64,000 nucleotides of DNA from a bacterium (GCA_021791415.1 JAJYWQ010000064.1:91446-155445); one strand, 5' to 3'. Shown: positions 19,023-41,091, counted from the first letter of the stretch. Numbers and translations: made by a program. The notes: generated from the letters alone by a model not told the origin.

Positions 19023-20576
19023 GTGGAGAAGAGGCAGGAGGAGCTGCTCTGGCTGCTGGCCCCGGCCGCGGTGGTGGGCACGGCGGTGGTGGCCTCCGCG
19101 CTCCGCGGGGGGGCCCTGGGGGGGCCACCTACCGGGCCACGGCTGGCCGGCCTGGGAGCGGCCCTGGGGGTGGTCGTGACGATCGGGGCCCTCACCTGGG
19201 TGAGTCGGCCACGCACCTCCCTCCGCCCCGGATCGCTGGGGGGAGCGCGCACCGCCCGGCTTCTCGAGCTCCGTCGGCTCTGGCACGGTGGGAAGGCACG
19301 GGTCCGGTTGGGACGGGTCGGGCCGGTGATCGTCCGCCTGCCGGAGGATGAGCACCTGCTGGTGCTAGGCCCCACCGGGTCGGGCAAGTCCAGCTCGCTG
19401 GCGATTCCCGCGATCCTGGAGTGGCCCGGCCCGGTGGTGGTCACCGACCCGAAGGGGGAGCTGCTGGCCCGGACCCTGGCGGCGCGGGAGCGGCGGGGCC
19501 CAGCCGCAGTCTTCGCTCCCCTCATGGAGCCCGGGGACGGCTGGAACCCGGTGAGCTCCATCACCAGCTCGGACGACGCCCTGCGCAGCGCTGGCTTCCT
19601 GCTCGGCCGTCCGCCGGACCGCGAGCCCTTCTGGCACGACCTGGCGCTTCAGCTGCTGCACGGGCTGCTGGTGGAGGCCGCCAGCGCCGGCCTCACCCTG
19701 AGTGACATCCTCGCCCTCCTTCAGCAGGTCCCGGCCGAGGAGGTGGCCGAGGAGCTCAGTCACCCGCTGGCCCGGCAGCTGGTCCAGGGTGCCCTGAGCG
19801 GCGGGGACCGGACCGCCATGGGCGTCGTCGCCACCCTGGTGTCCAAATTGGGGGTGTTCGGCAGCGATCAGGTGGCGCACACCACGGCCCGGAGCACCTT
19901 CGATCCACGCTGGCTGGCGAGTGGCCGGTTGAACAGCCTCTACTGCGTGGTCAGCCCCACTGACGCCCCGCTGGTGCGGGGGCTGCTGAGCGCCCTGCTG
20001 TCCGCCTGCTGGCGGGCGGTGTACGCCAGTCCGCCGCCGCTCCCGGTGCTCTTCGTCCTGGACGAGTTCGCTCAGCTGACGGCCCTGCCCGAGCTGCCCT
20101 CGCTGGTGCAGCTGGGCCGCACCCAGGGGGTGCGGATGGTGCTTCTGGCCCAGGACCTCGCCTCGATCTCGGCCCTGTACGGGGCGGAGGCGGTGACCGC
20201 CCTCTGGGCCAACTGCCGGACCAAACTCCTTCTCCCCGGCATCTCGGAGGTGGATCTGCTGGAACGCGCCAGCCGGCTGGTGGGCTCCGCCACCCTGCAC
20301 TCCGCGGAAGGTGGCCACCCGTTGCAGGCCCATCCGTACCTGCCTCCGGACGGGATCAGGCGGCTGCGGCAAGGGCGCGCCCTGATCCTCCGTGCGAGCG
20401 ACCATCCGGCACTGGTACGCCAGCTTCCCTGGTACTCCGACCGCCGGATGCGGGCGGCTGCCGCCGCCGGCACCCCTGACGAGCGCTTGCCCAGAGCGGC
20501 GACGGGACGCCCCATCACCATCGCACAGGGGCCCCGGCCGATCGCCTGGGCGCAGCCACGAGGTGGGGCCCGTTGA
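19023..20576 (+). CDS. Type IV secretion coupling protein (VirD4/TraG family ATPase)
   Basis: N-terminal TM helices. Walker A 'LVLGPTGSGKSSSLAIP'. 'VVTDPKGEL' motif. Walker B 'VLFVLDEFAQL'. 'GRTQGVRMVLLAQDLASI' is the TraG/VirD4 C-terminal hallmark. GTG start. Confidence 0.8.
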   Translation: MEKRQEELLWLLAPAAVVGTAVVASALRGGALGGPPTGPRLAGLGAALGVVVTIGALTWVSRPRTSLRPGSLGGARTARLLELRRLWHGGKARVRLGRVGPVIVRLPEDEHLLVLGPTGSGKSSSLAIPAILEWPGPVVVTDPKGELLARTLAARERRGPAAVFAPLMEPGDGWNPVSSITSSDDALRSAGFLLGRPPDREPFWHDLALQLLHGLLVEAASAGLTLSDILALLQQVPAEEVAEELSHPLARQLVQGALSGGDRTAMGVVATLVSKLGVFGSDQVAHTTARSTFDPRWLASGRLNSLYCVVSPTDAPLVRGLLSALLSACWRAVYASPPPLPVLFVLDEFAQLTALPELPSLVQLGRTQGVRMVLLAQDLASISALYGAEAVTALWANCRTKLLLPGISEVDLLERASRLVGSATLHSAEGGHPLQAHPYLPPDGIRRLRQGRALILRASDHPALVRQLPWYSDRRMRAAAAAGTPDERLPRAATGRPITIAQGPRPIAWAQPRGGAR

Positions 20577-20860
20577 CCGAGCTGACAACCTTTGCGACCG
20601 GCCTGAACAACCTCATCCACACGGTGACCACCCTGGCCCTGGGGGCGGTGGCGGTCCTTTGCCTCAGCTTCGCGGCGATCCGCTACATGACCTCACTCGA
20701 CAACAGCCAGCGCCGGGCGGCCGCCATCCAGGGTCTGGTGACCGTCCTCCTGGGCGTTCTCCTGCTGGTGAACGAGGGGGCCATCCTGACCTTCGTCGAG
20801 GGGCTGACCGGCAGCAACACCGCCTGCGCGACCGCAACCTGTTCGGCGAGCGGCCCCTGA
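20573..20860 (+). CDS. Small two-TM membrane protein, TrbC/VirB2 pilin-like (set A)
   Basis: 95 aa with two hydrophobic helices. TTG start overlaps the virD4-like stop (TTGA). A paralogous gene sits at 39943. The assignment is by architecture and context only. Confidence 0.5.
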   Translation: MTELTTFATGLNNLIHTVTTLALGAVAVLCLSFAAIRYMTSLDNSQRRAAAIQGLVTVLLGVLLLVNEGAILTFVEGLTGSNTACATATCSASGP

Positions 20861-20880
20861 GGAGGCGTTCCGCGGCTGCG

Positions 20881-22989
20881 GTGGTCCTTGCCGGACACCT
20901 GCTCTCGGCGGGGACCGCCGCGGCGCCCACGGCACAGCCCACCCCGCCCCCCAGCGCGGCGGCCGCCTCAGCGGGGAGCGACAGCCAGCAGTGCGGCGGG
21001 ATCACCGACCCCTTCTGCTACGTCATCGATGCGTTCGTCTCAGGGCCGGTGGCCATCATGGGCAGCCTCGACGGAAGTCCCGACCCGGCCCACGTCGACC
21101 CCCTGACTGGGGCGGTGACCTCGGGCCCGTGGCACCTGATCACCACTCTCGTGGGCACCAACCCGGTGGTGGACAACTACGACGGGAGCCTCGGCGAGCC
21201 GGCTCATGAGTGCGGGTCATCCGGCTGCATCCCCTGGGTCCAGGAGATGAACGCCGTCCTCGAGCCGCTGTCCCTGGCACTCATCGTGATCGCCTTCGCG
21301 CTCCAGGTGTCGCTCTTCATGGCCGGACAGCAGCTCAACCTCAGGTCGGGCATCGTGCCCTGCCTGATCGCCGCCGCGGTCCTCGGGGCGGGACTTCCGC
21401 TGCACCTCGCTGGCCGCGTCATCGACATGGGGAGCTGGGTGTCCCAGGGGATCCTGGGGGCCACCTTCCACCGGCTGGGGGGCGCCGGCGCCGCCCCGCT
21501 GGACATGATGACCGTCCTCGCCATCACCGCCTACTGCCCGGAGGACAGTCCCATCATCCACCCGGGCATCCACCTCTCCCTGCCCGGCCCGAGCCCGCGC
21601 CAGCAGGTCCTGGTGGATCCCTGGATGGACCGGTCATTCAAGCAGTCTCACTGCATCGGGGCGTCCAGCCCAGACTTCACCAAGGAGGTCCTGGACCGCA
21701 GCGAGAACTTCTTCGGCCCCCCCCTCCACGACGCCAACTGCGACCGCGGAGACGCATCCCCCGGTCAGCCCCTCTGCACCAACACCGACAACCAAGTCAA
21801 CAACAACCAGGGCCAGAACTGCCTGGAGGGCAGCGGCGGGTCCACCGTTGGGGCGCTCCAATTGGGGGTGCTGCCGCTGCCGGGCGAGCCTCGGGCGGGT
21901 GACGGGCAGAGCCCGGCCGACTGTCGCTACGCGGACATCTATTGGGGCACGGTGCCCACCTTCACCGATGTCTGGGCGGGAGTTGGCCCCCATGGGCGCA
22001 ACGGCTACGACGTCCCCGACGGGCTCATGGGGATGGTGGCGTTCACCGCCCTCACCGGGCTCGGCCTGTGGCTGGCGCTGACCTACCTGGCCCGCTTCAT
22101 CGTCCTCTCCCTCCTCGCGGCCTGCTCCAGCCTGGCCTTCGTGGCGCTGGCGCTGCCCGGAGGGCGGACCCTCTTCAACCGCTACTGGGCCACGATCGGA
22201 GCCCTCTCCGCGGTAGTTGTGGTCCAGACCCTGATCTTCCTGGCCTTCGTGGCGGTGGTCTCCACCGTCTCCGGCCTGGCCCCCGTGGCCGCGCACGGAT
22301 CCTGCCCCTTCATCTCCCCGACCTCCCGTACGGGCTGCGCCGCGGCTCAGGGCGGACTCCTGGCCGAAGTGGGCAGTGGCAACCCCGGGGACCAGTTCGC
22401 CAAGTGCCTGCTGGCGGCCGTGACAGTCTTCCTCATGGTGGAGGTGCCGGGCCGCATCAGCCGGGGCGAGATGTCCACAACCCGCCGGGTCCGCGCCCTG
22501 GCCGAGCTGTCTGCAGGGACCGTGCTTGGCGGCTCCCTGCTGGCGGCCAGCGGCACCCTGCCCCAGGCCCGGCGCTACGGCTCCCGCTGGGGTGGGCAGG
22601 CCGCCCACGCCCTGGGGCTGCCCGGGCGACCGGAGGAGGACCTCGCCAGAAGGCTCGAAAGTGCGGTGCCCGGGGCGGGCGCCCGGTGGCCGACTGTGGT
22701 CGGACGGGAGTCGAGAGAGCAGTTTCTCGGTCGCCAGCTGCTGCGGGACGGAAGCCGTCAGCAGGAGCTCGGCAGGCTGACCAGCTTCAGCCCGGACGAT
22801 CTGGCGGCGATCAGGGCGCTGCCCGAGGGGACGGAGCTGGCGGAGGCACTCCGCGCCCTTGGGGCCCAGTACGCGGCCGCCGGAGGTCCCGCGGTCCACA
22901 GCCTGGACGTGGCCTACCTCAATGCCCTGCGGCGCGGCAGACTTCGGCCCCAGCCGGGCCCCCCGCGGGACCAAGCGAGGCGAGCATGA
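20881..22989 (+). CDS. Polytopic membrane protein, VirB6/TrbL-like (set A), with a Cys-rich extracytoplasmic domain
   Basis: Roughly 7 TM helices. Hydrophilic Cys-rich loops. Sits between the pilin-like and VirB3-like genes. The start is uncertain: a possible non-canonical start near 20857 would give a signal-peptide-like 'RRRSAAAVVLAGHLLSAGTAAAP'. The upstream part of track ORF 20392..22989 is an artefact. Confidence 0.5.
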   Translation: MVLAGHLLSAGTAAAPTAQPTPPPSAAAASAGSDSQQCGGITDPFCYVIDAFVSGPVAIMGSLDGSPDPAHVDPLTGAVTSGPWHLITTLVGTNPVVDNYDGSLGEPAHECGSSGCIPWVQEMNAVLEPLSLALIVIAFALQVSLFMAGQQLNLRSGIVPCLIAAAVLGAGLPLHLAGRVIDMGSWVSQGILGATFHRLGGAGAAPLDMMTVLAITAYCPEDSPIIHPGIHLSLPGPSPRQQVLVDPWMDRSFKQSHCIGASSPDFTKEVLDRSENFFGPPLHDANCDRGDASPGQPLCTNTDNQVNNNQGQNCLEGSGGSTVGALQLGVLPLPGEPRAGDGQSPADCRYADIYWGTVPTFTDVWAGVGPHGRNGYDVPDGLMGMVAFTALTGLGLWLALTYLARFIVLSLLAACSSLAFVALALPGGRTLFNRYWATIGALSAVVVVQTLIFLAFVAVVSTVSGLAPVAAHGSCPFISPTSRTGCAAAQGGLLAEVGSGNPGDQFAKCLLAAVTVFLMVEVPGRISRGEMSTTRRVRALAELSAGTVLGGSLLAASGTLPQARRYGSRWGGQAAHALGLPGRPEEDLARRLESAVPGAGARWPTVVGRESREQFLGRQLLRDGSRQQELGRLTSFSPDDLAAIRALPEGTELAEALRALGAQYAAAGGPAVHSLDVAYLNALRRGRLRPQPGPPRDQARRA

Positions 22990-23360
22990 CGGACGCCGAG
23001 GTACCCCAGCCGATCTCCGACGTGCCCAGCCGGTGGGGAGGGCTGACCACGCCCCAGCTGGGCTGGCTCGGCGGTGCGGCCGCACTGCCGATGATCCTGG
23101 TCCACGCGCATTGCGGTCTGGCAGCGACTGTCACCGGGGCGGTGCCGTGGGCGGCCGGCTGTGTCGTGCTGGGCTTCGGCAGCTGCCGGGGCCGCCGGCT
23201 CGATGCCTACCTTCTTGACGCGGCGCGCTTCCGGACCCAGCGACGGCGGCTGTGCCACCCGGACGTGTCGGCGTCGCCCCAGGAGTTCCGCGCCGTGGAC
23301 GGCTCGGAGCGCTGGCCCCTGGCCTGGAACGTGCCCTCAGGAGCCCCGGCCGAGCGATGA
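22986..23360 (+). CDS. Small membrane protein, VirB3/TcpE/PrgI-like (set A)
   Basis: 125 aa with a two-TM hairpin ('LGWLGGAAALPMIL...AGCVVLGF'). ATGA overlaps with both the upstream and downstream genes. Immediately precedes VirB4, the canonical VirB3 position. Paralogous to the ORF at 36657. Confidence 0.5.
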   Translation: MTDAEVPQPISDVPSRWGGLTTPQLGWLGGAAALPMILVHAHCGLAATVTGAVPWAAGCVVLGFGSCRGRRLDAYLLDAARFRTQRRRLCHPDVSASPQEFRAVDGSERWPLAWNVPSGAPAER

Positions 23361-25558
23361 GGTTTCCCCCGCGCTCGGGATCAACCCTGGACCTCATCGA
23401 CCTCGCCTACCTGGAGGGCGGCGTTGTTCGCCTCCGGGACGGGCGCCACCGGGTGGGGCTGGAGCTGGCAGCCCTCAACCTTCTGCTGCGGTCCAGCGCC
23501 GAGCGGCAGCTGATCTGGAGGCGCTACTGGCGGGCGCTCTCGACCCTCTCGGGGCCCGTCTCCCTCTACTGCTTCTCCCGGCCCCTGTCCCCCTCCACCC
23601 AGCCGGCGGCCACCGCCAATGGGCGCCTGGACGCCGAGTACTCGGCATCACTTCTGGCCAGTGGCCAGGTCCACCTCCGTCACCACCTGGCTGTGATCTG
23701 GGACGACTCCTCCGCGAGCCTGCGGGGGGCCCTGCCAGGGAGACTCCGCCGAGGAGGAGCCCTTGACCTGGACCAGCGCCGGAGAGCCGTTGCGGCGGCA
23801 TTGGCCGGCCCTGGGCTGCGTCCCCGTCCCCTCGAGGACGGGGATTGGCTGCGCCTGCTGCAGGAGCTGACAGGTGGGCGGAGTGGACGGCCCACCGCCA
23901 GCTTCGCCAGCTGGGTGGCGCCAGAGACAGCCACGGTGAGGCCGGACCGGCTGGAGCTCTCGGACCGGGTGGCCCGCAGCCTGGTCGTGCGCGGCTTCCC
24001 CCGCCGTCTGCAGCTCGGCTGGCTAGCCCCTCTGGTCCTGGCCGCCCCTGGCCCGCTCCGGATGGCTCAGCACCTGTACCCGGTGCCCAAGGTGCACAGC
24101 CTGAGCCATCTGCGCCGGCGTATCCGCACCTTCGAGACCGGGCTGGAGGTGGACCGGCGCCAGGGTCGGCGCCCGGATGCCGGCACCCGGGCAGCACTCG
24201 AGGACGCCCTGGCCCTCGAGGAGCGGGTCCTTTTGGAGGAGGACCACCTGATGCGGCTGGTGACCTGCGTCACGGTGGAGGGGTCCAGCACGGCGGAGAT
24301 GGAGCTGGGGTGGGAGCAGGTGGTCAACACCCTCATCGAGCTTGGATGCACCCCGGTTCCGCTGTTCAACCGCCAGGCGGACGGGTGGCGGGCAACGCTG
24401 CCGCTCGGTGTGGACCCCCTCGGCTGGTCCCGGGACATGACGGCGGCAGCCACCGCCACCGCCATCCCGTTCCTGCGGGCGACCCTGGATGTGAGGAACG
24501 GGGTGCTGCTGGGGCCCAGCCCCAGCACGAGGGAGCTGGTGACCGTCGATCCCCTGGCCAGCTCCAACCCCAACCGCAACGTCCTGGTCCTGGGGACCTC
24601 CGGCGGTGGCAAATCCTTCACCTCCAAGTTGCTCGCTGCCCGCCTCTTCCTCCAGGGGTGCCGGCTCCGCTGCCTGGACCCCGCGGGGGAATACCTGAAG
24701 CTGGGGGCACTTCTCGGAGCGCGCTGCCTGGACCTGGGCGCGACCGGCGAGCCCGGCCTCAATGTTCTCGGTCCACCTGGCCAGGAGCCCGAGGGGCGGG
24801 TGGAGCGGGCCATGCCTCTGCTGACGCGGCTGCTGGGGTCGAGCCGGTCGGCCGCCGCGCGGGCCTCCCTGGAGGCCATCGGGCTGGCCGCTCTGACCGC
24901 CCTGCGGCTCCAGCCCGCTGAAGCTGGCCTCGCTGAGGTCTTGGAGCAACTGGAGGCGTCGGGCCAGGGGGAGCTCGCAGCCGGTCTGCGGCGGCGGGCT
25001 GCCGGCCCTGGTGCCGGCGTCTTCCAGGGCGCAGGCGGAGTCGGCGGCGATGACGCCCTGGTCATCTCCCTGCGCCACCTCCACGCCCGGGAGGAGCTCC
25101 TGGGGGCAGCCATGGAGCTGGTGCTCTGGCACCTCGAGGCAGACCTCGAGCACCCGCACTCCCGACCCACCCTGGTGGTCGTGGACGAGGCGGAGGTCCT
25201 GCTCTCCTCCCCATCGGGAGCGCGCTTCCTGGAGAGCATGGCCCGGCGGATCCGCAAACTGGGAGCCGGGCTGCTGGTGGTTTCCCAGGTGGTCGAGGAC
25301 TTCCTCAACTCTCCCGTGGGCAACGTGGTGATTCGCAACTGCCATACCAAGCTGCTGCTCCGCCAGGAGCCGGTGGCCCTTGCCGGGGTGCGGCGCGCCT
25401 TCTCGCTCTCCGAGGCGGAGTGCGAGCTCCTCCGAGATGCGGAGCCAGGGTGCGGGCTGGTGCTGGCGGGGGATGAGCATGCCAGCTTCCGAGGGGGAGC
25501 TCCTCAGGCTTGGTGGCCGGCCCTGACCACAGGTCAGCTGGCCGCGGGCTCCCCGTGA
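23357..25558 (+). CDS. VirB4/TrbE/TraC-family T4SS ATPase (set A)
   Basis: Walker A 'VLVLGTSGGGKSFTSKLL' followed by 'CLDPAGEY' (the DPxGE motif of VirB4). Walker B 'LVVVDEAEVLL'. 'LLVVSQ' motif. Confidence 0.85.
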   Translation: MRFPPRSGSTLDLIDLAYLEGGVVRLRDGRHRVGLELAALNLLLRSSAERQLIWRRYWRALSTLSGPVSLYCFSRPLSPSTQPAATANGRLDAEYSASLLASGQVHLRHHLAVIWDDSSASLRGALPGRLRRGGALDLDQRRRAVAAALAGPGLRPRPLEDGDWLRLLQELTGGRSGRPTASFASWVAPETATVRPDRLELSDRVARSLVVRGFPRRLQLGWLAPLVLAAPGPLRMAQHLYPVPKVHSLSHLRRRIRTFETGLEVDRRQGRRPDAGTRAALEDALALEERVLLEEDHLMRLVTCVTVEGSSTAEMELGWEQVVNTLIELGCTPVPLFNRQADGWRATLPLGVDPLGWSRDMTAAATATAIPFLRATLDVRNGVLLGPSPSTRELVTVDPLASSNPNRNVLVLGTSGGGKSFTSKLLAARLFLQGCRLRCLDPAGEYLKLGALLGARCLDLGATGEPGLNVLGPPGQEPEGRVERAMPLLTRLLGSSRSAAARASLEAIGLAALTALRLQPAEAGLAEVLEQLEASGQGELAAGLRRRAAGPGAGVFQGAGGVGGDDALVISLRHLHAREELLGAAMELVLWHLEADLEHPHSRPTLVVVDEAEVLLSSPSGARFLESMARRIRKLGAGLLVVSQVVEDFLNSPVGNVVIRNCHTKLLLRQEPVALAGVRRAFSLSEAECELLRDAEPGCGLVLAGDEHASFRGGAPQAWWPALTTGQLAAGSP

Positions 25559-26235
25559 ACCCCCGGCGCCTGCTGTCCGGCATGGGGCCCCTGCTGGCCC
25601 TGGGTTGCCTGGTCCCCGCGGTCCTTGGGGCCAGCCTCGTGGGGTTGCTGGGGGCCGGGGCAGCGGCCGCCGGGTGGCCCGCGCTGGGTGGCTTGCTCCC
25701 CGATCCTGGAGGGCTGGTCCTGCGGCCTGGAGAGGTGGTCCTGGCGAGCTCGCCCTCCTTCCCGGAGTGGGCGGCCCCGTGCGGCCCCGAGCCGGGAGCA
25801 CTGGCGGTCCAGCCCTCGGCCTGCACCGGACATCCTGAGCCGTTCCCGGCCAACTACCAGGGCTTCTCCACGGGTCAGTGCACCTGGTATGTGGCCACCC
25901 GCCGGCTGGTCACCTGGCACACCCCTCAGGGCCTCCTGGGCGGCAACGGGGGACAGTGGCTGGAGCTGGCTTCGGCGGCGGGCTATGCGGTCGGCGTCTC
26001 CCCGGAGCTGGGGGCCATCGCGGTCTACGGAGACCGCGGCCCTGGCCACGTGGCGTTCGTCGTCGGGGTGGGCGCCGACGGGTCGTACACGGTGGCGGAG
26101 TCCAACTGGGCGCTCCTCGGGCCCGTCCCGCCCTACGTGGACCTCAGGGGGGTCGCGGCCGGAGCTACCGGGAGCGCGACCGAGACACTCCTGGGGTTCG
26201 TCTACGGCCCCGCGGAGCTGCCGTCCCCATCCTGA
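25555..26235 (+). CDS. Secreted CHAP-domain peptidoglycan hydrolase (VirB1-like role)
   Basis: Signal-peptide-like N-terminus. CHAP Cys 'GQCTWYVATRR' and His 'GHVAFVVGV'. GTGA overlap with the virB4 stop. Confidence 0.75.
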   Translation: MNPRRLLSGMGPLLALGCLVPAVLGASLVGLLGAGAAAAGWPALGGLLPDPGGLVLRPGEVVLASSPSFPEWAAPCGPEPGALAVQPSACTGHPEPFPANYQGFSTGQCTWYVATRRLVTWHTPQGLLGGNGGQWLELASAAGYAVGVSPELGAIAVYGDRGPGHVAFVVGVGADGSYTVAESNWALLGPVPPYVDLRGVAAGATGSATETLLGFVYGPAELPSPS

Positions 26236-30416: not shown

Positions 30417-30421
30417 CCGTG

Positions 30422-30478: not shown

Positions 30479-31435
30479 ATGCGCGGAGCCCAAGCCATTG
30501 GGCGCGTCTCGATTGCTGTGGCAATGGCCGGGTTGGTCTGGGTCTCCGCCGTGCTGGGACCAGGTCCGAACACCAGGGCCCAGCAGGGACTCGCCGGTGA
30601 CCAGGCCCAACTGACCCAGCTTCTGAACCAGCTCCGAGCCCAGGGCGACCTGGCGTCTCAGAGCCAGGTGATGGCGCTCCTGACCCAGATTGAGTCGGAG
30701 CAGGGCTACTTGAAGCAGCTGAACGCCAAGCTGGCTGCGGATCAGGCGACCTCGGCGACCCTGCAGCGGCAGATGGCGGGTGATCAGATCGCCCTCACCA
30801 ACCTGGTGTCCACCGCCTACGTGGACGGCAGCGGCAGCCAGCAGGTGGCGGAGGCGCTGGCCGCACCCAACCTCGGCCAGTTCCTCGCCAGCACCGCCCT
30901 GCCGTCGGCGGTGGCATCCCAGGTCGCCCAGTTGGTGGAGACCATCAAGCACGACCAGCAGGTGGTGGCCACGGCCGCAGCGCAACTGCAGGTCGACGAG
31001 AGCCAGGCGATGGTAGCCCAGGCGCAGCTGGGGCAGCGCTCCCAGCAGCTCCTGGCCGAGCTGACAACGCCCCAGCCGGCCATCGGCACCGGAAGCTGGT
31101 CCTTCGCCTTCGGTGACTGCACCTGGTGGGTCGCCAGCCAGAGGAAGGTCACCTGGGGCGGCAACGCCTACCAGTGGTGGGCCAACGCCGCGGCTGCCGG
31201 ATACGCCGAGGGCCAGACTCCCGAGGTGGGGTCGATCGTGGTGTGGGGCATGGACGTGCCCGGAGAGAGCTGGGGGTACGGCCACGTGGCGTACGTGGTG
31301 GCGGTCAAGCCGGGGTCCTTCGAGGTCTCGGAGATGAACTTCTACGGCGTCCCGGGGGGCGGGTGGGATCGAGTCGACTACAGATGGATTCAGGATGGCG
31401 CAGGGTACCTGGGTTTCATATACGGCCCCGCTTGA
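30479..31435 (+). CDS. Secreted coiled-coil + CHAP-domain cell-wall hydrolase (PcsB/RipA-like architecture)
   Basis: Signal peptide. Long Q/A-rich coiled coil. C-terminal CHAP domain ('GDCTWWVASQRK', 'GHVAYVVAV'). GGGAGGA RBS upstream of ATG 30479. Confidence 0.75.
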   Translation: MRGAQAIGRVSIAVAMAGLVWVSAVLGPGPNTRAQQGLAGDQAQLTQLLNQLRAQGDLASQSQVMALLTQIESEQGYLKQLNAKLAADQATSATLQRQMAGDQIALTNLVSTAYVDGSGSQQVAEALAAPNLGQFLASTALPSAVASQVAQLVETIKHDQQVVATAAAQLQVDESQAMVAQAQLGQRSQQLLAELTTPQPAIGTGSWSFAFGDCTWWVASQRKVTWGGNAYQWWANAAAAGYAEGQTPEVGSIVVWGMDVPGESWGYGHVAYVVAVKPGSFEVSEMNFYGVPGGGWDRVDYRWIQDGAGYLGFIYGPA

Positions 31436-32021
31436 GCTGACGCGGGCGCCCTCGGCGCCCGCTCAGCGAAGGGCATGGCCCAGGCTGGCCTCGAGGCTAA
31501 GGTGGGGAGCCGCCGCGCTCTGCCTGGCCGCGCTGTCCCCGGCACTGGGGGCGCTCAGCACCGGGGAGGCGGTCGGCCCCCCGTCTCCCGCCCCGGCGCT
31601 GGTGGCCCAGATCGCCGCCCAGGGCCGCAACCTCCTCAGCAGCACCGGCTACGAGATCACCATGCCGCTGGCGGTGACCAAGGTGACCCCGCCTCCGCCG
31701 CCCCAGCCATCCCTCCCCTACGGCAATGCCTTCTGGCAGCCGGTGCCAGAGCCGCCGATCGGAACCATCAAGCAGATCATCTGGGCCGCCGCCCAGAAGT
31801 ACAACGTCTCCTACGCCTGGCTCCTCGGGGTGGCCCAGTGCGAGTCCGGCCTCGACCCCACCGACGTCAACCGCTCCTCCGGGGCCAGCGGGCTCTTCCA
31901 GTTCATGCCCGCCACCTTCTACGGCCACGGAGGCACCGACATCTGGAACCCCACCCAACAGGCCGACATCGCCGCCAAGATGTTCTCCATAGGGGAGTCG
32001 TCGGAGTGGGTCTGCAAGTAG
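31395..32021 (+). CDS. Lytic transglycosylase (SLT-domain) protein
   Basis: 'AQCESGLDP' and 'SGASGLFQFMPATF' SLT motifs. The only in-frame ATG (31395) overlaps the upstream gene by 41 nt, so the start is uncertain. Confidence 0.65.
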   Translation: MAQGTWVSYTAPLELTRAPSAPAQRRAWPRLASRLRWGAAALCLAALSPALGALSTGEAVGPPSPAPALVAQIAAQGRNLLSSTGYEITMPLAVTKVTPPPPPQPSLPYGNAFWQPVPEPPIGTIKQIIWAAAQKYNVSYAWLLGVAQCESGLDPTDVNRSSGASGLFQFMPATFYGHGGTDIWNPTQQADIAAKMFSIGESSEWVCK

Positions 32022-34591: not shown

Positions 34592-35218
34592 ATGGGGCAG
34601 GTCGTGGTGGTGGGGAGCGCGGAGCTCGCCGAGCGGGTGCGCCGGCTGCTGCCCAACTTCGAAGTGCTGGGACCGGACTCCGAGCCCGAGCTCGAGGACC
34701 CGGTCTCCTCCCTGGAGACCGTCCGCACCCTTTTGGACTCCGGCTCCGCCCCGGACTCCCTGGTCTGCTCCGCCCTCCCCGGGTTCGCCCTCCTCGGCCA
34801 GGTCCCACGGCTGTCGCCGTCGCGCTGCTTTGTGACCCCCGAGGGCTCCGCATGGCCCGGGGAGACCGTCCGCTGGATGGCGGAGGCAGTCGGCATGATC
34901 GTCCTGCCGGGCCTCGAGGCGCTTCCAGCGATGCTCCTGGGTCGGTCGGCGCCCCCTCCGCCGCCGCCCCGGGGCCTCACGGCGGTGGTCGAGACGGCAG
35001 CCGCGCCACCACGCCCTCAGAGCCCCGCCATCCCGCCTCCCTCCGCCCCGACCTACGACTGGGCCGCCGAGACCCCGGTGCAGGTGCCCCCGCCACCGGT
35101 CTCCCTCGACCCCACTCCGGTACCGGCCGCGCCCCAGGTCATAGACGCCGGTGGCCCGCCGCAGACGGCCTACGAGCCCACCGACGTGCTGAGACCGCTG
35201 CGGCCCCGGAGGCGCTGA
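34592..35218 (+). CDS. Hypothetical protein with Pro-rich C-terminus
   Basis: The ORF has a plausible globular N-terminal ~120 aa. No family recognised. Confidence 0.4.
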   Translation: MGQVVVVGSAELAERVRRLLPNFEVLGPDSEPELEDPVSSLETVRTLLDSGSAPDSLVCSALPGFALLGQVPRLSPSRCFVTPEGSAWPGETVRWMAEAVGMIVLPGLEALPAMLLGRSAPPPPPPRGLTAVVETAAAPPRPQSPAIPPPSAPTYDWAAETPVQVPPPPVSLDPTPVPAAPQVIDAGGPPQTAYEPTDVLRPLRPRRR

Positions 35219-35225
35219 GAAGGAC

Positions 35226-35633
35226 ATGCCCAGCAACCCGCTCAGGCGGCGTCCGACCTCATCCCAGTTGGCCGAGCGTGCCCGCGCCGAGCTGCAACGC
35301 GCCCTGGCTGTGGTGGACGAGGCAGCCGCCACCGGCAACCTGGCGCGGCTCGGGCTGGCCCTCAGCGGGGACGCCCTGAGCGAGGTCCAGGCGCGCTTCC
35401 ACGCCTACCAGATGGCCGGCATCCAGGTGAGTCCCTTCCGCGAGGGGCTGCAGATCGAGGTGCTGGAGGAGAGCACCCAGGAGCGCGTCTGGCTCCGGGT
35501 CCGCTACCGGGACCGGACGGGATTCCTCGCCGCCAGGGTGGCGCCGGCCACCGCCGGCGACCCGGTCGAGCTGAGGGTCGGACTGGACGCCACCCAGACG
35601 CCCTGGCGCATCACGACGCTCATCGCCAGCTGA
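35226..35633 (+). CDS. Hypothetical protein
   Basis: 135-aa ORF with balanced composition (F/Y/W/I present). No family recognised. Confidence 0.4.
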   Translation: MPSNPLRRRPTSSQLAERARAELQRALAVVDEAAATGNLARLGLALSGDALSEVQARFHAYQMAGIQVSPFREGLQIEVLEESTQERVWLRVRYRDRTGFLAARVAPATAGDPVELRVGLDATQTPWRITTLIAS

Positions 35634-35698
35634 TCGGCGGCCGAAGGACGGCGTGCTAGGCTGGGAGTCCCCCGGCGCCCACGTGAGAGAAGGAAGCC

Positions 35699-36136
35699 AT
35701 GACCAACCCCCCTGACGCCGACCCGGAGCTGGAACCCGCCGCGGGCGGGCTGGACGCCGAGGAGCCGCTCGAGGATGACGTCCTTGAGGAGGAGGTGCTG
35801 GAAGAGGAGGTCCCGGTCGCTCGCCCCGCGCCCCGCCCCGCTCCTCCGCGGCCGTGGGGTGGAAGCCGCAGCAACGTCTCGGCTGAGGACCTGCCCCCCG
35901 AGGAGCTGACACCGGAGATGCGGTGGCCCCCGGGCAGCTGGGTGCGCGTCACCGACGTGGTCCGGCACAGCACCGGAGAGCCGATCGCCGGGATCCAGGT
36001 CGGCGACGTGGGCCAGGTGGTGGCGGCACTCTCCCAGACCCTGGTGGTTCTCTTCCCCACCCGCGACAACCGCCGGGAGGTGCTGCACATCGAGTCCATC
36101 GAGGCGGTGGACTCCCCGGCCGGGACGGCCCCCTGA
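35699..36136 (+). CDS. Hypothetical acidic protein
   Basis: Asp/Glu-rich N-terminus. The globular C-terminal ~70 aa ('WVRVTDVVRHSTGEPIAGIQVGDVGQVV...') resembles a small beta-barrel domain. Confidence 0.4.
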   Translation: MTNPPDADPELEPAAGGLDAEEPLEDDVLEEEVLEEEVPVARPAPRPAPPRPWGGSRSNVSAEDLPPEELTPEMRWPPGSWVRVTDVVRHSTGEPIAGIQVGDVGQVVAALSQTLVVLFPTRDNRREVLHIESIEAVDSPAGTAP

Positions 36137-36147
36137 GCCCCGACCGG

Positions 36148-36504
36148 GTGGGGCGAGAGACGCTGGCCCTCAGGGGGCTTCGCTACTTCGGCCGCCACGG
36201 GGCACATCCGGCCGAGCGCGAGCTCGGATCGCACGTGGAGGTGGACGTGGAGGTGGACGCCGACCTGGCGCTCGCCGTGGCCAGCGATCGCCTGGAGGAC
36301 ACCCTCAGCTACTCCCTGGTGGAGGCGGCTGTTCGGAGGGTGGTCCAGGGGTCGGAGTTCAACCTCCTGGAGGCGCTCGCCGGAGCGATCGCGGAGGCGG
36401 TGCTGGCGCTCCCGCGGGCGGAGCGGGTCACGGTCCGCGTCACCAAGGCGCCCCGCCTCCCCTCCCAGACGGCCGGCTTCACCTTCGAGCTCCGCCGGCC
36501 CTGA
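36148..36504 (+). CDS. folB: Dihydroneopterin aldolase
   Basis: 'LRGLRYFGRHGAHPAERELGSHVEVDVEV...DTLSYSLV...FNLLEALAGAIA' matches the FolB family pattern. GTG start. Confidence 0.7.
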   Translation: MGRETLALRGLRYFGRHGAHPAERELGSHVEVDVEVDADLALAVASDRLEDTLSYSLVEAAVRRVVQGSEFNLLEALAGAIAEAVLALPRAERVTVRVTKAPRLPSQTAGFTFELRRP

Positions 36505-36656
36505 GCCCACCGCCGGCCGGACGGCGGACGTTGGTGTGCGGCGATGGGAGTGGGCAGCTCCGGGGAGCTCGAAGGCGATGGCGAGACCGGGGGACCGGGC
36601 GCGGGCCGGCCGGGTGGGCCGTGATCCTGGCTCCAGACGGTGGGCGTGAGGAGCCG

Positions 36657-36914
36657 ATGGCCCTCGGGCTGCCGCCGGCCCGCCTGGCCCTCCTGGGGCT
36701 CGTGGTGGCGGGAGGGGCGGCGGCGCTGCGGGCTCCGCTCCCGCTGGAGCCGAGAGCTGTCCTGGCCGGGCTGGTGCTCGGCCCGGGCTCGCTCCTCGCC
36801 TGGGCCAGGCTGCTGGAGCTCTCCGCCCTGGGCTGGTGCGAGCGGCTGGCCGCCTACTGGCTGCGCTCCCTCGCCGGGCTGGCGGAACGGTCGTCTTGGA
36901 TGGATGCCGCATAG
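36657..36914 (+). CDS. Small two-TM membrane protein, VirB3/TcpE-like (set B)
   Basis: GAGGAG RBS. 'GLPPARLALLGLVVAGGAAAL' parallels 'GLTTPQLGWLGGAAAL' of the set-A protein. It overlaps the downstream ATPase ORF by up to 79 nt, so it may be shorter or spurious. Confidence 0.4.
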   Translation: MALGLPPARLALLGLVVAGGAAALRAPLPLEPRAVLAGLVLGPGSLLAWARLLELSALGWCERLAAYWLRSLAGLAERSSWMDAA

Positions 36915-38800
36915 CTCCAGCGAGGTCTTCCGAGGCCGAGCGGGCGATCGAGGTCGCCGGGCCGGACATCCTCGACGCCCGCCCTGTGCCCAGAGCCCAG
37001 CTGCTGGCCGGGTTCGAGGCCTGGCTGGACCAGCTGGATGCCCCGGTCCGCCTCACCGTCACCTCGCGAGCCGCTGAGGGCCGGCGCCGGCGGTCGGTCT
37101 GGCTGCGGTCGGCCGGCGCCGAACGGGCCCCCCAGGCGGCGGCGCAGCTGGAGAGGCTCTGCGGGGCGAAGGTGCGCGGATCGAGGACCTTCCCGCCCCT
37201 GGTGGAGGGTCCCGGCCGGGAGCGAGTCACCGGAGTCGATTGGGCGGGCCGGTGGGTGGAGTGCCTCCGCCTCACCACGCTGCCACGGGTCCCGGTCGAA
37301 GCGGGTTGGCTGTGGCAGCTGGTGGGCGAGCCTCAGGACCTCGATCTCACCGTGAGCATTTCGCCGGTGGCCGCCGGCACCGCCGACCGCCGACTCCGCC
37401 ACCGCTTGAGGGAGCTGGCCGCCCGCGAGCTGGAGACAGATCGGGGGATGCCCGACCCGGCCCTGGTGGTCGAGAGAGCTGCGGCCACCCGCCTCAGGGA
37501 GGTTCTGGCGCGGGGAGAGGGGCGGGCGTTCGAGGTGGCGGTCTCGATGGCGGTCGGGGGAGGTGCCGTGGCGGAGGTGAGGGCGGCCGCGGCGCGGCTG
37601 CGACGCCGGGCGCTGGGGATGCGGGCCCAGCTGGCCCCGGCCTGGCTGGACGAGGGTCCGGCCCTGCTGGAGGCGAGGGGATGTCGGAGGCCGCGACGAC
37701 CCTTCATCCGGCTGCTCACCACCCCCGAGGTGGCCACCTTCTGGCCCTGGTTGGACGGGCCAGGGGAGCTGGAGCCGCAGAGCTGCCGGATTGGCCGCCA
37801 CCTGCGCACCCAGGGGCCGGTGGGACTGAAGCTGGCCGCGTCGGCCGCCGCCCCCAACTCCAACTGTTGCGTCATCGCCACCTCGGGCGCGGGCAAGTCC
37901 TACCTGGCGCGCGTGGTGGGTGCGGCTCAGGCGCTGGCCGGGACCCAGACGGTGGTCGTGGACCCCGAGAACGAGCACCGGCTCTGGTGTGAGGCCGTGG
38001 GCGGGCGCTACCTCGACCTGGGCCGGGGCGGCGGGCTCGGCTTCAACGTCTTCGAGGCCGGCACTCCCGGCGAGGGGGAGCTCGCCGCCCGGGAGCTGGT
38101 CGAGCTGTTGGCCGGCCCCCTCTCGCCGGCGGAGGCCGGCGCCTTCCTGGAGGGGTGCGCCGCTGCCCGGCCGAGTGCCGGTGGCCGGACACCTGTGCTG
38201 GCGGACCTGCTGGGGAGGCTGGCCGGCGACCCCCACGGACGGAGCCTGGCCGCCCGGCTGCGGCCGTGGGTCGAGGGGCCAGCCGGGCTGCTCTTCAGCG
38301 GTCCCGGCCGGGGCCCGGAGGTGACCCGCGCCCTGGGGGTGGGGCTGCGCGACCTTCCCGAGCGCTGGCGCGCGGGGGCCGCCTTCCTGGTTTCGCGATG
38401 GCTGTGGGCCTGGGCCCAACGGGAGCCCGGTCCCAAGCAGGTCATCATCGACGAGGCCGGCCTGCTGGCCGCCCAGCCCCAGCTGGCCGAGCTGATGGGG
38501 CAGATGGCCCGGCGGCTGCGCAAGTATTCCGGCTCCCTGCTGCTTCTGACCCAGACGCCCCGCGACCTGGCGGTCGAGGGATTTGGCGAGCTGGTCGCCA
38601 GCAACTCCGCGACCCTCCTGGTGGGGTCGTCGACGGGGCCCGGGGTCCAACGCCTCAGATCGGGCTTCCACCTCAGCGACGAGGACTGCGAGTGGCTGCA
38701 GCGGTGCTCCCGAGGGGAGTTCCTCATGCTGGCCGGGGCCACCCAGGCCCGGGTCAGGGTGGAGGCGCCCGACGAGGGGACGGGCGACGACCGGGGATAG
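36836..38800 (+). CDS. VirB4/TrbE-family T4SS ATPase, second paralogue (set B)
   Basis: Walker A 'CVIATSGAGKSYLARVV' followed by 'VVDPENEH'. Walker B 'VIIDEAGLL'. 'LLLLTQTP'. The N-terminal region aligns with the set-A VirB4 ('GGTVVLDG...PRAQLLAGFEAWLDQL' vs 'GGVVRLRDG...ERQLIWRRYWRAL'). The GTG 36836 start is uncertain. Confidence 0.8.
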   Translation: MRAAGRLLAALPRRAGGTVVLDGCRIAPARSSEAERAIEVAGPDILDARPVPRAQLLAGFEAWLDQLDAPVRLTVTSRAAEGRRRRSVWLRSAGAERAPQAAAQLERLCGAKVRGSRTFPPLVEGPGRERVTGVDWAGRWVECLRLTTLPRVPVEAGWLWQLVGEPQDLDLTVSISPVAAGTADRRLRHRLRELAARELETDRGMPDPALVVERAAATRLREVLARGEGRAFEVAVSMAVGGGAVAEVRAAAARLRRRALGMRAQLAPAWLDEGPALLEARGCRRPRRPFIRLLTTPEVATFWPWLDGPGELEPQSCRIGRHLRTQGPVGLKLAASAAAPNSNCCVIATSGAGKSYLARVVGAAQALAGTQTVVVDPENEHRLWCEAVGGRYLDLGRGGGLGFNVFEAGTPGEGELAARELVELLAGPLSPAEAGAFLEGCAAARPSAGGRTPVLADLLGRLAGDPHGRSLAARLRPWVEGPAGLLFSGPGRGPEVTRALGVGLRDLPERWRAGAAFLVSRWLWAWAQREPGPKQVIIDEAGLLAAQPQLAELMGQMARRLRKYSGSLLLLTQTPRDLAVEGFGELVASNSATLLVGSSTGPGVQRLRSGFHLSDEDCEWLQRCSRGEFLMLAGATQARVRVEAPDEGTGDDRG

Positions 38801-38809
38801 AATCGCCCC

Positions 38810-39406
38810 ATGGGTCGGGTGGTGCGCTACCGACTGCTCAACTCCGGCCGTGCCCCCGCAGCCGCCTGGGAGGAGGCTGTTCGCCAGTTCGCGGCCACCC
38901 GCAGCTGGCGGGAGGGGGAGATGTGGCTGGCGACCGACGCCTCCCGCGGCCTCTTCGAGTCCGAATACCTCCGCCACCTGCGGCTGGAGACCCCCGACCC
39001 CATCCTGGGGGCGGGCTTCGTCAAGGTGGAGGGCGACGAGACCGACGCTCTGGCTGTCTGCTTCGGGCTCCTGCGGATGACCGAGGAGCAGGGGGGGCGC
39101 GTTCTCATCGACGACCTGGACAACCCCATCCGCAAGCAGCGGCGGCTGGAGTTCATCGAGGGAAGGGTCAGTGGACCCCACACCATCGACGAGCTGATGG
39201 TCGCCGGGCCGATCTTCAAGCGGCTGCCCCGGGCGACCATCACCTTCTACCCCCCGCGCTATAGGGGCCGGACCCTTCCCGGCCCGAACACTCCCGCGGG
39301 GCAGTGGGGCTTCGCCCTCCAGGGGATGCGCGCCGCGGCGGGCGGCTTCCTGGAGGCGGAGGCGGAGGCGATGCGGATCTACCGCGGCCTGCAGGCGATC
39401 GGCTGA
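38810..39406 (+). CDS. Hypothetical protein encoded between the second VirB4-like gene and dtd
   Basis: 198-aa ORF with balanced composition and no TM. No family recognised. Confidence 0.5.
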   Translation: MGRVVRYRLLNSGRAPAAAWEEAVRQFAATRSWREGEMWLATDASRGLFESEYLRHLRLETPDPILGAGFVKVEGDETDALAVCFGLLRMTEEQGGRVLIDDLDNPIRKQRRLEFIEGRVSGPHTIDELMVAGPIFKRLPRATITFYPPRYRGRTLPGPNTPAGQWGFALQGMRAAAGGFLEAEAEAMRIYRGLQAIG

Positions 39407-39408
39407 CC

Positions 39409-39879
39409 TTGAGGGCCGTGGTCCAGCGGGTTCAGCAAGCTGCGGTCCGGGTCCAGGGGGAGGAGGTGGGGGCCACCGGGCCCGGGCTGCTGGTGTACCT
39501 GGGTGTGGGGCCAAGGGACGATGACGGCGTTGCCCGCCATCTGGCCGGCCGCATCGCCACCCTCCGGGTGTTCCCCGACGACCAGGGCAGGATGAACCGC
39601 TCCCTGCTGGAGGTGGGCGGCCAGGCGCTGGTGGTGAGCCAGTTCACCCTGTATGCCGCCACCGGGCGCGGCCACCGGCCATCCTTCCTGGGGGCGGCAG
39701 CCCCGGCCACGGCGGCCGAACTCTGCCGCCGGTTCGGGGAGGAGCTGAGCCGGTTGGGGGTGGCGAGGGTGGCCGAGGGCCGTTTCGGCGCCCACATGGA
39801 GGTTGAGTCGGTGAACGATGGGCCGGTGACCGTGGTCCTCAGTTCGGGCGAGGCGCCCTGGGAGGCGGACTGCGGCTGA
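39409..39879 (+). CDS. dtd: D-aminoacyl-tRNA deacylase
   Basis: 'RAVVQRV', 'LLVYLGV' and 'VVSQFTLYA' (SQFTL) motifs. TTG start 2 nt after the upstream stop. Confidence 0.8.
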   Translation: MRAVVQRVQQAAVRVQGEEVGATGPGLLVYLGVGPRDDDGVARHLAGRIATLRVFPDDQGRMNRSLLEVGGQALVVSQFTLYAATGRGHRPSFLGAAAPATAAELCRRFGEELSRLGVARVAEGRFGAHMEVESVNDGPVTVVLSSGEAPWEADCG

Positions 39880-39942
39880 GGGGCCAGGCCCGGGGCGCCG
39901 CCGGACCTAAGTGAGGATCGGCGGCAAGCGCGGAGGAACCCC

Positions 39943-40182
39943 ATGGCCCAACTGGTTTCGCTACTCAATTCCTGGATTCTCCTGGGACAGGAGCTGATCG
40001 CCAGCCTGGGCACCCTGGCCTTCGTGTGCGCCTTCATCTGGCGGGTGGTCGCCCCCAGCCCTCACAGCGCCCTGGAGGCGCAGCGGTGGCTGGGGCGGAT
40101 CGCCATCGGGACCTTGGGAGTGGAGCTGGCCGGGGTCCTGACCCACGTCCTGCTCTCCGCGGTGCCCCGCGGGTTGGGCTGA
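39943..40182 (+). CDS. Small two-TM membrane protein, TrbC/VirB2 pilin-like (set B)
   Basis: 79 aa. GGAGGA RBS. Same hairpin architecture as the ORF at 20573. Confidence 0.45.
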   Translation: MAQLVSLLNSWILLGQELIASLGTLAFVCAFIWRVVAPSPHSALEAQRWLGRIAIGTLGVELAGVLTHVLLSAVPRGLG

Positions 40183-40194
40183 CCGAAAGCGGCC

Positions 40195-41091
40195 ATGCCC
40201 GGGCCACCCCAGTTCGGCATCAACCCTCTGGGGGTACTGGCCGGGCTCTTCGACGGGATCCTCTCCGAGTTCGTCAGCAGCGCCCGAGGAGCCCTGGACG
40301 CGGCCCTCAAGAGCTACCTCTTCGGCACCTATGACGCCGCCGGGGGACGCGCCCAGGCGCCCTTCACCGGGACGCCGGGCCTGGCCGGCCTCAACCACCT
40401 GCTGGCGGCTGCGGGGGGGGCGCTGCTGCTGGCGGTGCTGCTGTACAGCTCGCTGCGCACGGTGGCGGACCTGGGCGCGGTCCGTCACCAGCTTCAGCAG
40501 GTGCTTCCCCGGTGCCTGGCAGCGGTGGCGCTGGCCACGGTGAGCCTGCCCCTCCTGCAGCAGGTGATCGATCTCAACAATGCCCTCTGTGCCGTGGTGG
40601 TCGGCGGCGCCCAACTCTCCCTGAGCGCCCTCCCCTGGAGCTCTCCGCTCAGCCAGCAGGGGGTCCAGTCCGCGGGGGAGAACCTCTTCCTCCTGCTCTT
40701 CGCCGCGGCCCTCGTGGTGGCCGTGGTGATCCTGGCGCTGAGCTACGTGGTCCGCTACACCCTGCTGGCCGTCCTGTGTGCCGCCGCCCCCCTGGCCGCC
40801 TACTGCACCGTGCTGCCCGAGACCCGGGGATTCGCCCGGCAGTGGGGCAGGCTCCTGGTGGTCTCACTGTTCATGCAGTTCGGCCAGCTCCTCGTGCTGC
40901 GGGTGGCGGTGCAGCTGGCGTTCACCAGGGGGGGCGGGCTGGCCGGAATGCTCTACGCCCTCGCCAGCCTCTACCTCATGCTCCGGGTCCCGGGAGCGCT
41001 CAACGTGGCCACCCACTACGAGTCCAGCGCCGAGGCCGCGGCCCGGAGGTGGAGCCGCGCGGTGCGGCGCCTATCCGTGGGAGAGCTCTGA
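40195..41091 (+). CDS. Polytopic membrane protein, VirB6/TrbL-like (set B)
   Basis: Roughly 6 TM helices. Position after the pilin-like gene mirrors set A. Confidence 0.5.
   Translation: MPGPPQFGINPLGVLAGLFDGILSEFVSSARGALDAALKSYLFGTYDAAGGRAQAPFTGTPGLAGLNHLLAAAGGALLLAVLLYSSLRTVADLGAVRHQLQQVLPRCLAAVALATVSLPLLQQVIDLNNALCAVVVGGAQLSLSALPWSSPLSQQGVQSAGENLFLLLFAAALVVAVVILALSYVVRYTLLAVLCAAAPLAAYCTVLPETRGFARQWGRLLVVSLFMQFGQLLVLRVAVQLAFTRGGGLAGMLYALASLYLMLRVPGALNVATHYESSAEAAARRWSRAVRRLSVGEL

Follow-up and report, generated by a model that had tools for sequence, protein, structure and literature searches.

Why a bacterium should keep one coupling protein of a type IV secretion system (T4SS) together with two VirB4 ATPases, in two blocks set among housekeeping genes, is the question raised by positions 19,023 to 41,091 of a 64,000-nucleotide stretch of bacterial DNA (GCA_021791415.1, JAJYWQ010000064.1:91446-155445), referred to here as the window, with positions counted from its first letter. 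A preliminary description of this DNA had proposed a domesticated T4SS-like machine, and the locus has that character: it is chromosomal and non-mobile, with two functional-looking VirB4s and one coupling protein. The comparative analysis reported here suggests that the region probably encodes two separate minimal T4SS modules of the monoderm (MPF_FATA-like) kind, which would have been stripped of mobile-element functions and inherited vertically as host genes. Module 1 would comprise VirD4, a VirB2-like pilin, a VirB6-like protein of 702 amino acids (aa), a PrgI/VirB3 protein, the first VirB4 (VirB4-1) and a CHAP hydrolase. Module 2 would comprise a protein with two transmembrane (TM) segments, the second VirB4 (VirB4-2), a 198-aa protein, another two-TM protein and TrbL_4, with Dtd embedded among them. 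The genes of the two sets are as follows.

19023..20576, + strand: VirD4-type coupling protein (T4CP) with two N-terminal TM segments (PF02534 E 7.6e-40, TrwB_AAD_bind, TraG-D_C)
20573..20860, + strand: pil1, 95-aa two-TM VirB2-like pilin (T4SS_pilin E 2.3e-5)
20881..22989, + strand: 702-aa polytopic protein, probable VirB6-like channel or platform of set 1 (topology, position, weak TrbL_4 similarity)
22986..23360, + strand: 124-aa PrgI/VirB3-like protein of set 1 (PrgI in 8/8 orthologues)
23357..25558, + strand: VirB4-1 ATPase, 733 aa (P-loop_TraG, AAA_10)
25555..26235, + strand: CHAP peptidoglycan hydrolase, 226 aa, VirB1 analogue of set 1 (PF05257; PcsB-type CHAP match)
36657..36914, + strand: 85-aa two-TM protein, positional VirB3 candidate of set 2, overlapping the start of VirB4-2
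36896..38800, + strand: VirB4-2 ATPase, 634 aa (AAA_10, P-loop_TraG)
38810..39406, + strand: 198-aa cytoplasmic protein, candidate set-2 component, 9 nt past VirB4-2
39466..39879, + strand: Dtd, D-aminoacyl-tRNA deacylase, embedded in set 2 (PF02580 E 5.6e-49; same position in all relatives)
39943..40182, + strand: pil2, 79-aa two-TM hairpin protein, positional pilin candidate, directly 5' of TrbL_4
40195..41091, + strand: TrbL_4/VirB6-like polytopic protein of set 2 (PF19597 37.3 bits, cutoff 27)

Genes were called by third-position GC, consistent with public gene calls on identical contigs, and the exact VirD4 sequence is also found in GCA_027401955.1 and in several ENA soil assemblies. In set 1, the junctions between genes are 4-nt start/stop overlaps, the sole exception being that between pil1 and the 702-aa gene. 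The VirD4-like gene is the only one in the window, as had been stated at the outset; its Walker A and B motifs are conserved among orthologues and its best NCBIfam match, CD1115 (118 bits), lies under the cutoff. T4SS_pilin and TrbC were matched by 6/6 pil1 orthologues, with scores of about 25 bits that fall slightly short of the cutoff; a pilin-like Mbov_0395 match reached 22 bits. The C-terminal Cys-x4-Cys tail of pil1 is conserved, and the protein is 80-97% identical across the phylum sample. The predicted TM segments of the 702-aa protein leave large Cys-rich regions on the outside and a tail in the cytoplasm. Its gene occupies the VirB6 position, in the interval between pilin and PrgI, as in an integrated conjugative element (ICE) discussed below (L058); TrbL_4 was matched by 2/8 of its orthologues, and comparison with the TrbL_4 orthologues gives weak support (hhalign probability 69%, E 4e-5). 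The PrgI matches of the next protein have a best E of 2.7e-9, with one above the cutoff, and the protein also matches the PrgI of the ICE (E 2.3e-4). VirB4-1 scores 157 bits against the CD1110 family and matches PDB 4AG5 at E 1e-23, with conserved Walker A (GTSGGGKS) and Walker B (DEAE) motifs. The 226-aa CHAP gene, which the preliminary description had overlooked along with Dtd inside set 2, starts within the VirB4-1 stop, and its product keeps 65-77% identity in distant relatives. Because this hydrolase lies directly 3' of VirB4-1, set 1 can be seen as a complete Gram-positive-type module.

Both VirB4 ATPases, reported from the start as a pair, are full-length, and every orthologue of either one retains the Walker A and B motifs. 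VirB4-2 matches Mbov_0397 and CD1110 at 57-59 bits as well as the PDB entries 4AG5 and TrwK, and conserves xxSGxGKS as its Walker A and DEAG as its Walker B motif. CD1110 and Mbov_0397 are the best-matching models for the VirB4s and the Thermoanaerobacter VirB4 (4AG5) is their best solved relative, but all NCBIfam scores lie under the family cutoffs. The set-2 TrbL_4 profile recovers the TrbL of ICE L058 at E 6e-21. Set 2 has neither a coupling protein nor a hydrolase of its own, and its 79-aa and 85-aa proteins gave no Pfam match and no similarity to their set-1 counterparts: the 85-aa protein reached an hhalign probability of 15% against the set-1 PrgI-like family, while the pil2 profile matched the ICE L058 pilin weakly (E 0.004 among 7 sequences). 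Identity of pil2 is 71-98% across the sample. Hence, the proposed duplication of VirB2, VirB3 and VirB6 holds in part. The set-1 pilin-like and PrgI/VirB3-like proteins are supported and the TrbL_4 at 40195-41091 scores above its cutoff, whereas the set-2 'VirB2' and 'VirB3' are named by size, topology and position only and the 702-aa 'VirB6' has weak support. In a distant clade (L012 9144-10004; L025, L027, L029, L030, L037), the two-TM protein 5' of VirB4-2 is about 290 aa long, with a conserved C-terminal extension of about 200 aa that has no Pfam match; the clade of the window has the 85-aa membrane part only.

The relationship between the two ATPases was addressed with BLASTP, which aligned only their C-terminal ATPase domains (34% identity), and with orthologue profiles, which align over 607 columns (hhalign, E 3e-118), showing that both proteins are full-length. 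Searching 1.84 billion representative proteins with the VirB4-1 profile returned 10,405 VirB4-like proteins, its own family being made up of three representatives. The top foreign full-length match was a Patescibacteria protein (380 bits), which stands at the start of a continuum, with Actinomycetota and metagenome proteins close behind. On this profile, members of the VirB4-2 family reached 89-156 bits, below 242/242 foreign VirB4s (204-807 bits), and on the VirB4-2 profile, members of the VirB4-1 family reached 141-185 bits, below 171/242. The nearest foreign relatives of VirB4-2, at about 30% identity, include conjugative VirB4/TraC proteins of Actinomycetota. Since each family is outscored by most or all foreign VirB4s on the profile of the other, a recent duplication within the lineage is unlikely, and the suggestion of two paralogous subassemblies is not supported in that sense. 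We conclude that the proteins appear to descend from two different T4SS lineages, or from a very ancient duplication, and not from a recent copy; independent acquisition of the two modules seems more likely than ancient duplication. Neighbour-joining (NJ) trees agree with separate lineages but were judged unreliable for placement because of long branches and GC-driven composition.

The recurrence of the 22-kb arrangement was profiled with an alignment of the PcsB-like protein from the middle of the block, used to scan a single genome for each species. This yielded 33 orthologous Dormibacterota loci, each related locus being read within +/-10 kb. The arrangement recurs in the same places in most sampled Dormibacterota. 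In distant relatives, with VirB4-1 at 45-51% identity, synteny extends from PlsY/fumarase to IspH; a 2.39-Mb contig (L011/L026) and a 2.49-Mb chromosome that is complete (L025) are among them. In a tblastn matrix of the window proteins, every gene of the block was conserved in order, the housekeeping genes and the four orphan open reading frames (ORFs) included. Homologues of VirB4-1 at 46-52% identity lie in contexts with the same order from PlsY/fumarase to FolB, and those of VirB4-2 at 43% identity in contexts with the same order from UbiA to IspH. The chromosomal flanks, shared by dozens of species, are identical even where VirB4-1 is only 45-60% identical.

Set 1 is present in 20/22 loci that reach its position, the CO-dehydrogenase (cox) cluster being found in its place, upstream of UbiA, in L020 and L045 (1-7700). 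VirB4-2 is present in 24/25 loci that reach the set-2 position; in L023 an ABC transporter is found instead, and VirB4-2, the 198-aa ORF, Dtd, pil2 and TrbL_4 are missing. Both sets occur in 16/19 loci spanning both positions, one locus being without set 2 and two without set 1. The question raised at the outset, whether the two sets are always co-present, is thus answered by co-presence in most relatives, with three exceptions. On a further contig, L052 (JBJKSO010000081.1, 1937-2512), VirB4-2 is absent between FolB and the 198-aa ORF while the rest of set 2 is intact. A hydrophobic frame was seen by eye in this 575-nt gap but was not recovered by the ORF/TM script, and L052 represents either a natural deletion or a misassembly.

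The preliminary description had assumed an actinobacterial and possibly mycelial host, which the comparison contradicts. The genomes that carry the syntenic loci or homologues of the two VirB4s are named Candidatus Dormibacteria, Dormiibacterota or Dormibacteraeota, and the host phylum is Candidatus Dormibacterota, an uncultured lineage of soil bacteria. Three metagenome-assembled genomes (MAGs) with a Dormibacterota-type locus are named Micrarchaeaceae archaeon, Acidiferrales and Nanopelagicaceae (L030, L037 and L045, respectively), probably as mislabels of one MAG catalogue. In full-text searches of the literature, no account of a T4SS in Dormibacterota came up.

Ratios of non-synonymous to synonymous substitution (dN/dS), computed against close relatives, place all block genes under purifying selection (0.02–0.3). 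The most constrained genes are the pilin-like ones (pil1 0.02, pil2 0.03-0.05), and values for the others include TrbL_4 0.08-0.10, the 702-aa protein 0.10-0.11, HemE 0.14-0.16 and both VirB4s 0.18-0.20. The orphan ORFs are constrained as well, with 0.07-0.16 for the three ORFs at 34592-36136 (0.07 for the 145-aa ORF) and 0.10 for the 198-aa ORF. Identity in distant lineages is still 71-91% for the pilin-like proteins, against 40-51% for the VirB4s and about 60% for HemE. Neither set is decaying: a pseudogenised copy, raised beforehand as an outcome that would speak against the proposal, was looked for, and intact ORFs and conserved Walker motifs were found, with the dN/dS of both VirB4s as given above.

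No relaxase, VirB11 or recognisable VirB8 is present among the called ORFs of the window, as had been stated from the beginning, and no integrase or transposase was found among the ORFs of the 64 kb. An integrase with att sites, the other outcome named in advance, was looked for in the window and its relatives and not found. Neither an integrase nor a relaxase was called in any of the more than 30 related loci, each covered to +/-10 kb; att-like flanking repeats are absent, the Rfam check was also negative, and the only tRNA in the window lies 13 kb downstream of the region. The G+C content is 69-75% throughout the window, with no compositional island. In one assembly of the same population (L005, ENA ERZ27237452), a serine recombinase (PF00239, 18078-18656) follows the MFS gene near a contig end; other assemblies have two small ORFs and UbiA there, and a strain-level insertion or an assembly join could explain the recombinase.

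The remaining genes of the region, upstream of set 1 and between the two sets, are listed below.

15451..15993, - strand: 180-aa bitopic protein (one TM segment and an outer domain of about 120 aa), no family match
18397..18870, - strand: receiver-only response regulator (PF00072), divergent from VirD4, candidate regulator
Between 26235 and 30479: major facilitator superfamily (MFS) transporter, then two small ORFs (one per strand), UbiA (- strand) and HemE
30479..31435, + strand: PcsB-like coiled-coil and CHAP protein, overlapping the SLT gene, conserved in all loci
31395..32021, + strand: SLT transglycosylase, conserved in all loci
32264-34560, + strand: M20 hydrolase, then an enzyme of the o-succinylbenzoate synthase (OSBS)/N-acylamino-acid-racemase family (TIGR01928, 320 bits, above cutoff)
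34592..36136, + strand: three conserved ORFs of 208, 135 and 145 aa, no family or PDB match; the FolB gene follows

The two sets form separate blocks 11 kb apart, and the genes from M20 through TrbL_4 lie on a single strand with intergenic gaps of no more than 152 nt. The view that the sets are split by housekeeping genes is accurate for MFS, UbiA, HemE, CHAP, SLT, M20, the enolase-superfamily enzyme and FolB, which do intervene, but one of the intervening CHAP hydrolases is part of set 1. The CHAP and SLT pair at 30479-32021 may or may not be machine-associated: these could be wall hydrolases of the apparatus or cell-division enzymes. Murein-peptide recycling, considered as a role for the M20 and enolase-superfamily enzymes, was dropped, the latter enzyme being assigned to the OSBS/N-acylamino-acid-racemase family above the TIGR01928 cutoff. 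A D-amino-acid theme shared by M20, this enzyme and Dtd within the conserved block is conceivable. The window contains three CHAP-domain proteins (25555-26235, 30479-31435 and 50281-51465), the third of which (394 aa) lies downstream of the block and follows it in relatives too. Farther downstream, a 1021-aa ORF on the - strand (59771-62836) combines FtsW/RodA (SEDS), dimerisation and transpeptidase domains of a penicillin-binding protein (PBP) and looks like a natural RodA-PBP2 fusion; it adjoins MreB (58675-59760).

The orphan ORFs had been put forward as candidates for missing components, and they part into two groups. The 198-aa ORF (38810) is 64-80% identical in relatives and is kept in L052, where VirB4-2 is missing; its disappearance along with set 2 from L023 makes it a candidate for a part of that set. 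The three ORFs at 34592-36136 are retained in L023 and hence are not specific to set 2. None of the orphan ORFs gave a Pfam, NCBIfam or PDB-sequence match above noise, whether alone or as profiles or orthologues. The family profiles of the 135-aa and 198-aa proteins returned no PDB sequence at E<=10, and a homologue search with the concatenated 135-, 198- and 180-aa ORFs returned nothing. Single-sequence AlphaFold2 models of the 135-aa and 198-aa ORFs reached predicted local distance difference test (pLDDT) scores of 42 and 37, which makes them unusable for fold assignment. Helices followed by strands in the 135-aa ORF would fit an NTF2-like fold, but this was not counted as evidence. The only VirB8-like topology nearby is that of the 180-aa protein at 15451-15993, whose gene remains in one neighbourhood with PBP1, the response regulator and VirD4 in L007, L008, L060 and L061, even where the farther flank changes. 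It is a possible accessory or VirB8-like candidate. The response regulator adjoins VirD4 in every locus that extends that far.

From established T4SS biology, a working scheme for module 1 can be proposed. The CHAP enzyme would locally open the wall, the PrgI/VirB3 protein, VirB4-1 and the VirB6-like protein would form the membrane translocon, VirB4-1 would pull the VirB2-like pilin out of the membrane so that a short filament or stalk can form, and VirD4 would recruit the substrate. Module 2, with no coupling protein, would resemble minimal pilus-only or DNA-import sets. As for the biological role, the tentative first choice is host-controlled transfer of DNA or DNA-protein complexes between cells, or DNA uptake, while protein or effector delivery, or adhesion alone, may come next.

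Several other explanations account for part of the data. A single composite machine, with two VirB4s and two VirB6-like proteins in one apparatus served by one VirD4, as in the rvh system, is unlikely. It would explain why both sets co-occur at 16/19 loci spanning both positions, why the T4CP and the adjacent hydrolase are each single, and why M20 to TrbL_4 form one closely spaced run, and a duplicated VirB4 within one system has precedent (PMC2653234). However, set 1 stands alone in L023 and set 2 is without set 1 at the locus in L020 and L045, the VirB4 families are very distant, their sets occupy separate blocks, and neither copy is degenerate, unlike in rvh. We regard as rather improbable that the genes were recruited for a non-transfer envelope task, such as export or insertion of surface filaments or wall remodelling with growth and division. 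The conserved VirD4 has intact motifs and such proteins are normally tied to substrate delivery, and we know of no precedent for VirB4 or VirB6 in wall biogenesis. What suggests an envelope task is the company of PBP1A upstream, the PcsB-like CHAP protein, SLT, the third CHAP protein, a glucosaminidase, MreB and RodA-PBP2, the attached receiver-only regulator, and pilin-like proteins that are more conserved than housekeeping enzymes; a neighbourhood by itself is weak evidence.

That the region is an ICE, or a fresh remnant of one, still or recently mobile, is extremely improbable. Its components are those of monoderm conjugative systems and the closest foreign relatives of VirB4-2 sit in real ICEs with relaxase and integrase, but neither the window nor any of the more than 30 related loci has an integrase, relaxase or att site, the flanks are identical across species with such divergent VirB4-1 proteins, the GC content is uniform, and housekeeping genes are interleaved and co-conserved. 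It is also very improbable that one set is a decaying, non-functional copy, as the absence of VirB4-2 in L052 and of set 2 in L023 and the lack of family matches for the small set-2 proteins might suggest. Against this stand intact ORFs, Walker A and B motifs conserved in all orthologues, set-2 dN/dS values of 0.03-0.20, to be read beside those of HemE, and the identity of pil2 across the sample.

Two separate, vertically inherited modules thus remain the favoured reading, and the following points weigh against it. The near-constant co-location of the modules also fits a single composite machine, and the cell-wall neighbours (PBP1A, PcsB-like CHAP, SLT, MreB and RodA-PBP2) leave room for an envelope role. 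The set-2 pilin and VirB3 assignments are purely positional, and no VirB8-like component (TcpC/PrgL/TraM, NTF2-like) has a sequence match among the window ORFs. Profile scores and NJ trees are no proper phylogeny, and the VirB4s could look more distant than they are because of high GC and long branches. A relaxase, a second T4CP or a 'missing' module could sit elsewhere in the genomes. Because the genomes are MAGs, the three exceptional loci and the L052 deletion could be assembly artefacts. Finally, to our knowledge, no cultured Dormibacterota exist.

Host-serving domesticated T4SSs are few (ComB, rvh, Ced/Ted and the Patescibacteria system), and each is informative on how conjugation machines are repurposed. 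The Dormibacterota locus is noteworthy in this context as a strongly selected one in a widespread, uncultured phylum of soil and permafrost, with two very different VirB4 modules side by side and pilin-like subunits more conserved than core metabolic enzymes. The lineages that are without one module at the locus provide a natural experiment. If the machine mediates DNA exchange, it would also bear on recombination in slow-growing oligotrophs.

The same component families are found in MPF_FATA ICEs and plasmids (CD1110/CD1115-type, pCF10 Prg, pCW3 Tcp). In contrast to these, the Dormibacterota locus has no relaxase, integrase, replication or partition genes, no VirB8/TcpC/PrgL-like gene was found in it, and it lies at a fixed chromosomal position across species with housekeeping genes interleaved. 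A direct comparison is offered by ICE L058 (7785-17399), a high-GC element from the same soil metagenome series, which holds one of the foreign relatives of VirB4-2 and encodes T4SS_pilin, TrbL, PrgI, VirB4, a hydrolase, a T4CP, Replic_Relax and an integrase. Module 1 shares with it the order pilin, VirB6/TrbL, PrgI, VirB4, hydrolase, but in Dormibacterota VirD4 stands at the front and the relaxase and integrase are gone. Because ICE L058 has a PF18895 pilin, VirB2-like pilins are not confined to non-conjugative monoderm T4SSs.

The archaeal Ced/Ted DNA-import systems pair a VirB4-family ATPase with a polytopic VirB6-like protein and with small two-TM proteins of the VirB2/VirB3 kind; they are chromosomal and are not known to have a relaxase or a T4CP. 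Module 2 has a similar minimal component set. It differs in its bacterial host, and scores of 14.8 bits for CedB (cutoff 700) and 33 bits for CedD (cutoff 600) amount to no family-level match. Ced and Ted have been named as VirB4-like reference systems (PMC12102498).

The closest system in architecture is the rvh T4SS of Rickettsiales, which is vertically inherited and chromosomal, with duplicated VirB4 and VirB6 and islets scattered among host genes (Gillespie et al. 2009, PMC2653234). It is a diderm MPF_T system with VirB7-B11, in which one copy per duplicated gene keeps the conserved features (PMC2653234). In the Dormibacterota window, by contrast, there are no VirB7-B11 matches, both VirB4s keep Walker A and B, and the sets look like different lineages and not like duplicates within a system.

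The closest system in kind is that of the Patescibacteria, or Candidate Phyla Radiation (CPR), a chromosomal, lineage-wide T4SS with no relaxase in cis, for which co-option to a role other than conjugation has been suggested (Quinonero-Coronel et al. 2025, PMC12102498). There, genes for PrgI/VirB3, VirB6-like and VirB2-like (PF18895/PF04956) pilin proteins lie beside a monoderm-type virB4 (PMC12102498). The Dormibacterota locus likewise combines a monoderm-type VirB4 with pilin, PrgI and VirB6-like proteins, is chromosomal and has no relaxase in cis, and it extends the occurrence of VirB2-like pilins alongside monoderm-type T4SSs beyond CPR. It differs in having two divergent VirB4 modules where CPR mostly have one, a VirD4 adjacent to virB4 where that of CPR is usually remote, and neither a pilin array nor a dnaA-proximal location. 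No TrsD/TraC-like match (PF26593 or similar) was found in the ORFs of the region, whereas one is present in the Patescibacteria comparator (L059). When the Dormibacterota family profiles, with VirB4 left out, were run against a Patescibacteria T4SS locus, only a PrgI-like match was obtained (E 8.8e-5).

A monoderm clade that unites Dormibacterota, Chloroflexota and Patescibacteria has been described (bioRxiv 10.1101/2021.05.31.446380; PMC12102498), with CPR as sister to Chloroflexota and Dormibacterota (PMC12102498). Shared vertical ancestry of at least one module, most plausibly module 1 with its PF18895-type pilin, PrgI and divergent VirB4-1, with the phylum-wide chromosomal T4SS of Patescibacteria is conceivable but a long shot. 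If true, a host-owned, relaxase-less T4SS with a VirB2-like pilus would predate the split, in the ancestor of CPR, Dormibacterota and Chloroflexota, and the CPR system, essential for epibiosis, would have been inherited from free-living ancestors and not acquired later from a host. Whether the CPR T4SS came horizontally or predates the split was left open (PMC12102498), and the Dormibacterota locus provides a concrete outgroup for this question.

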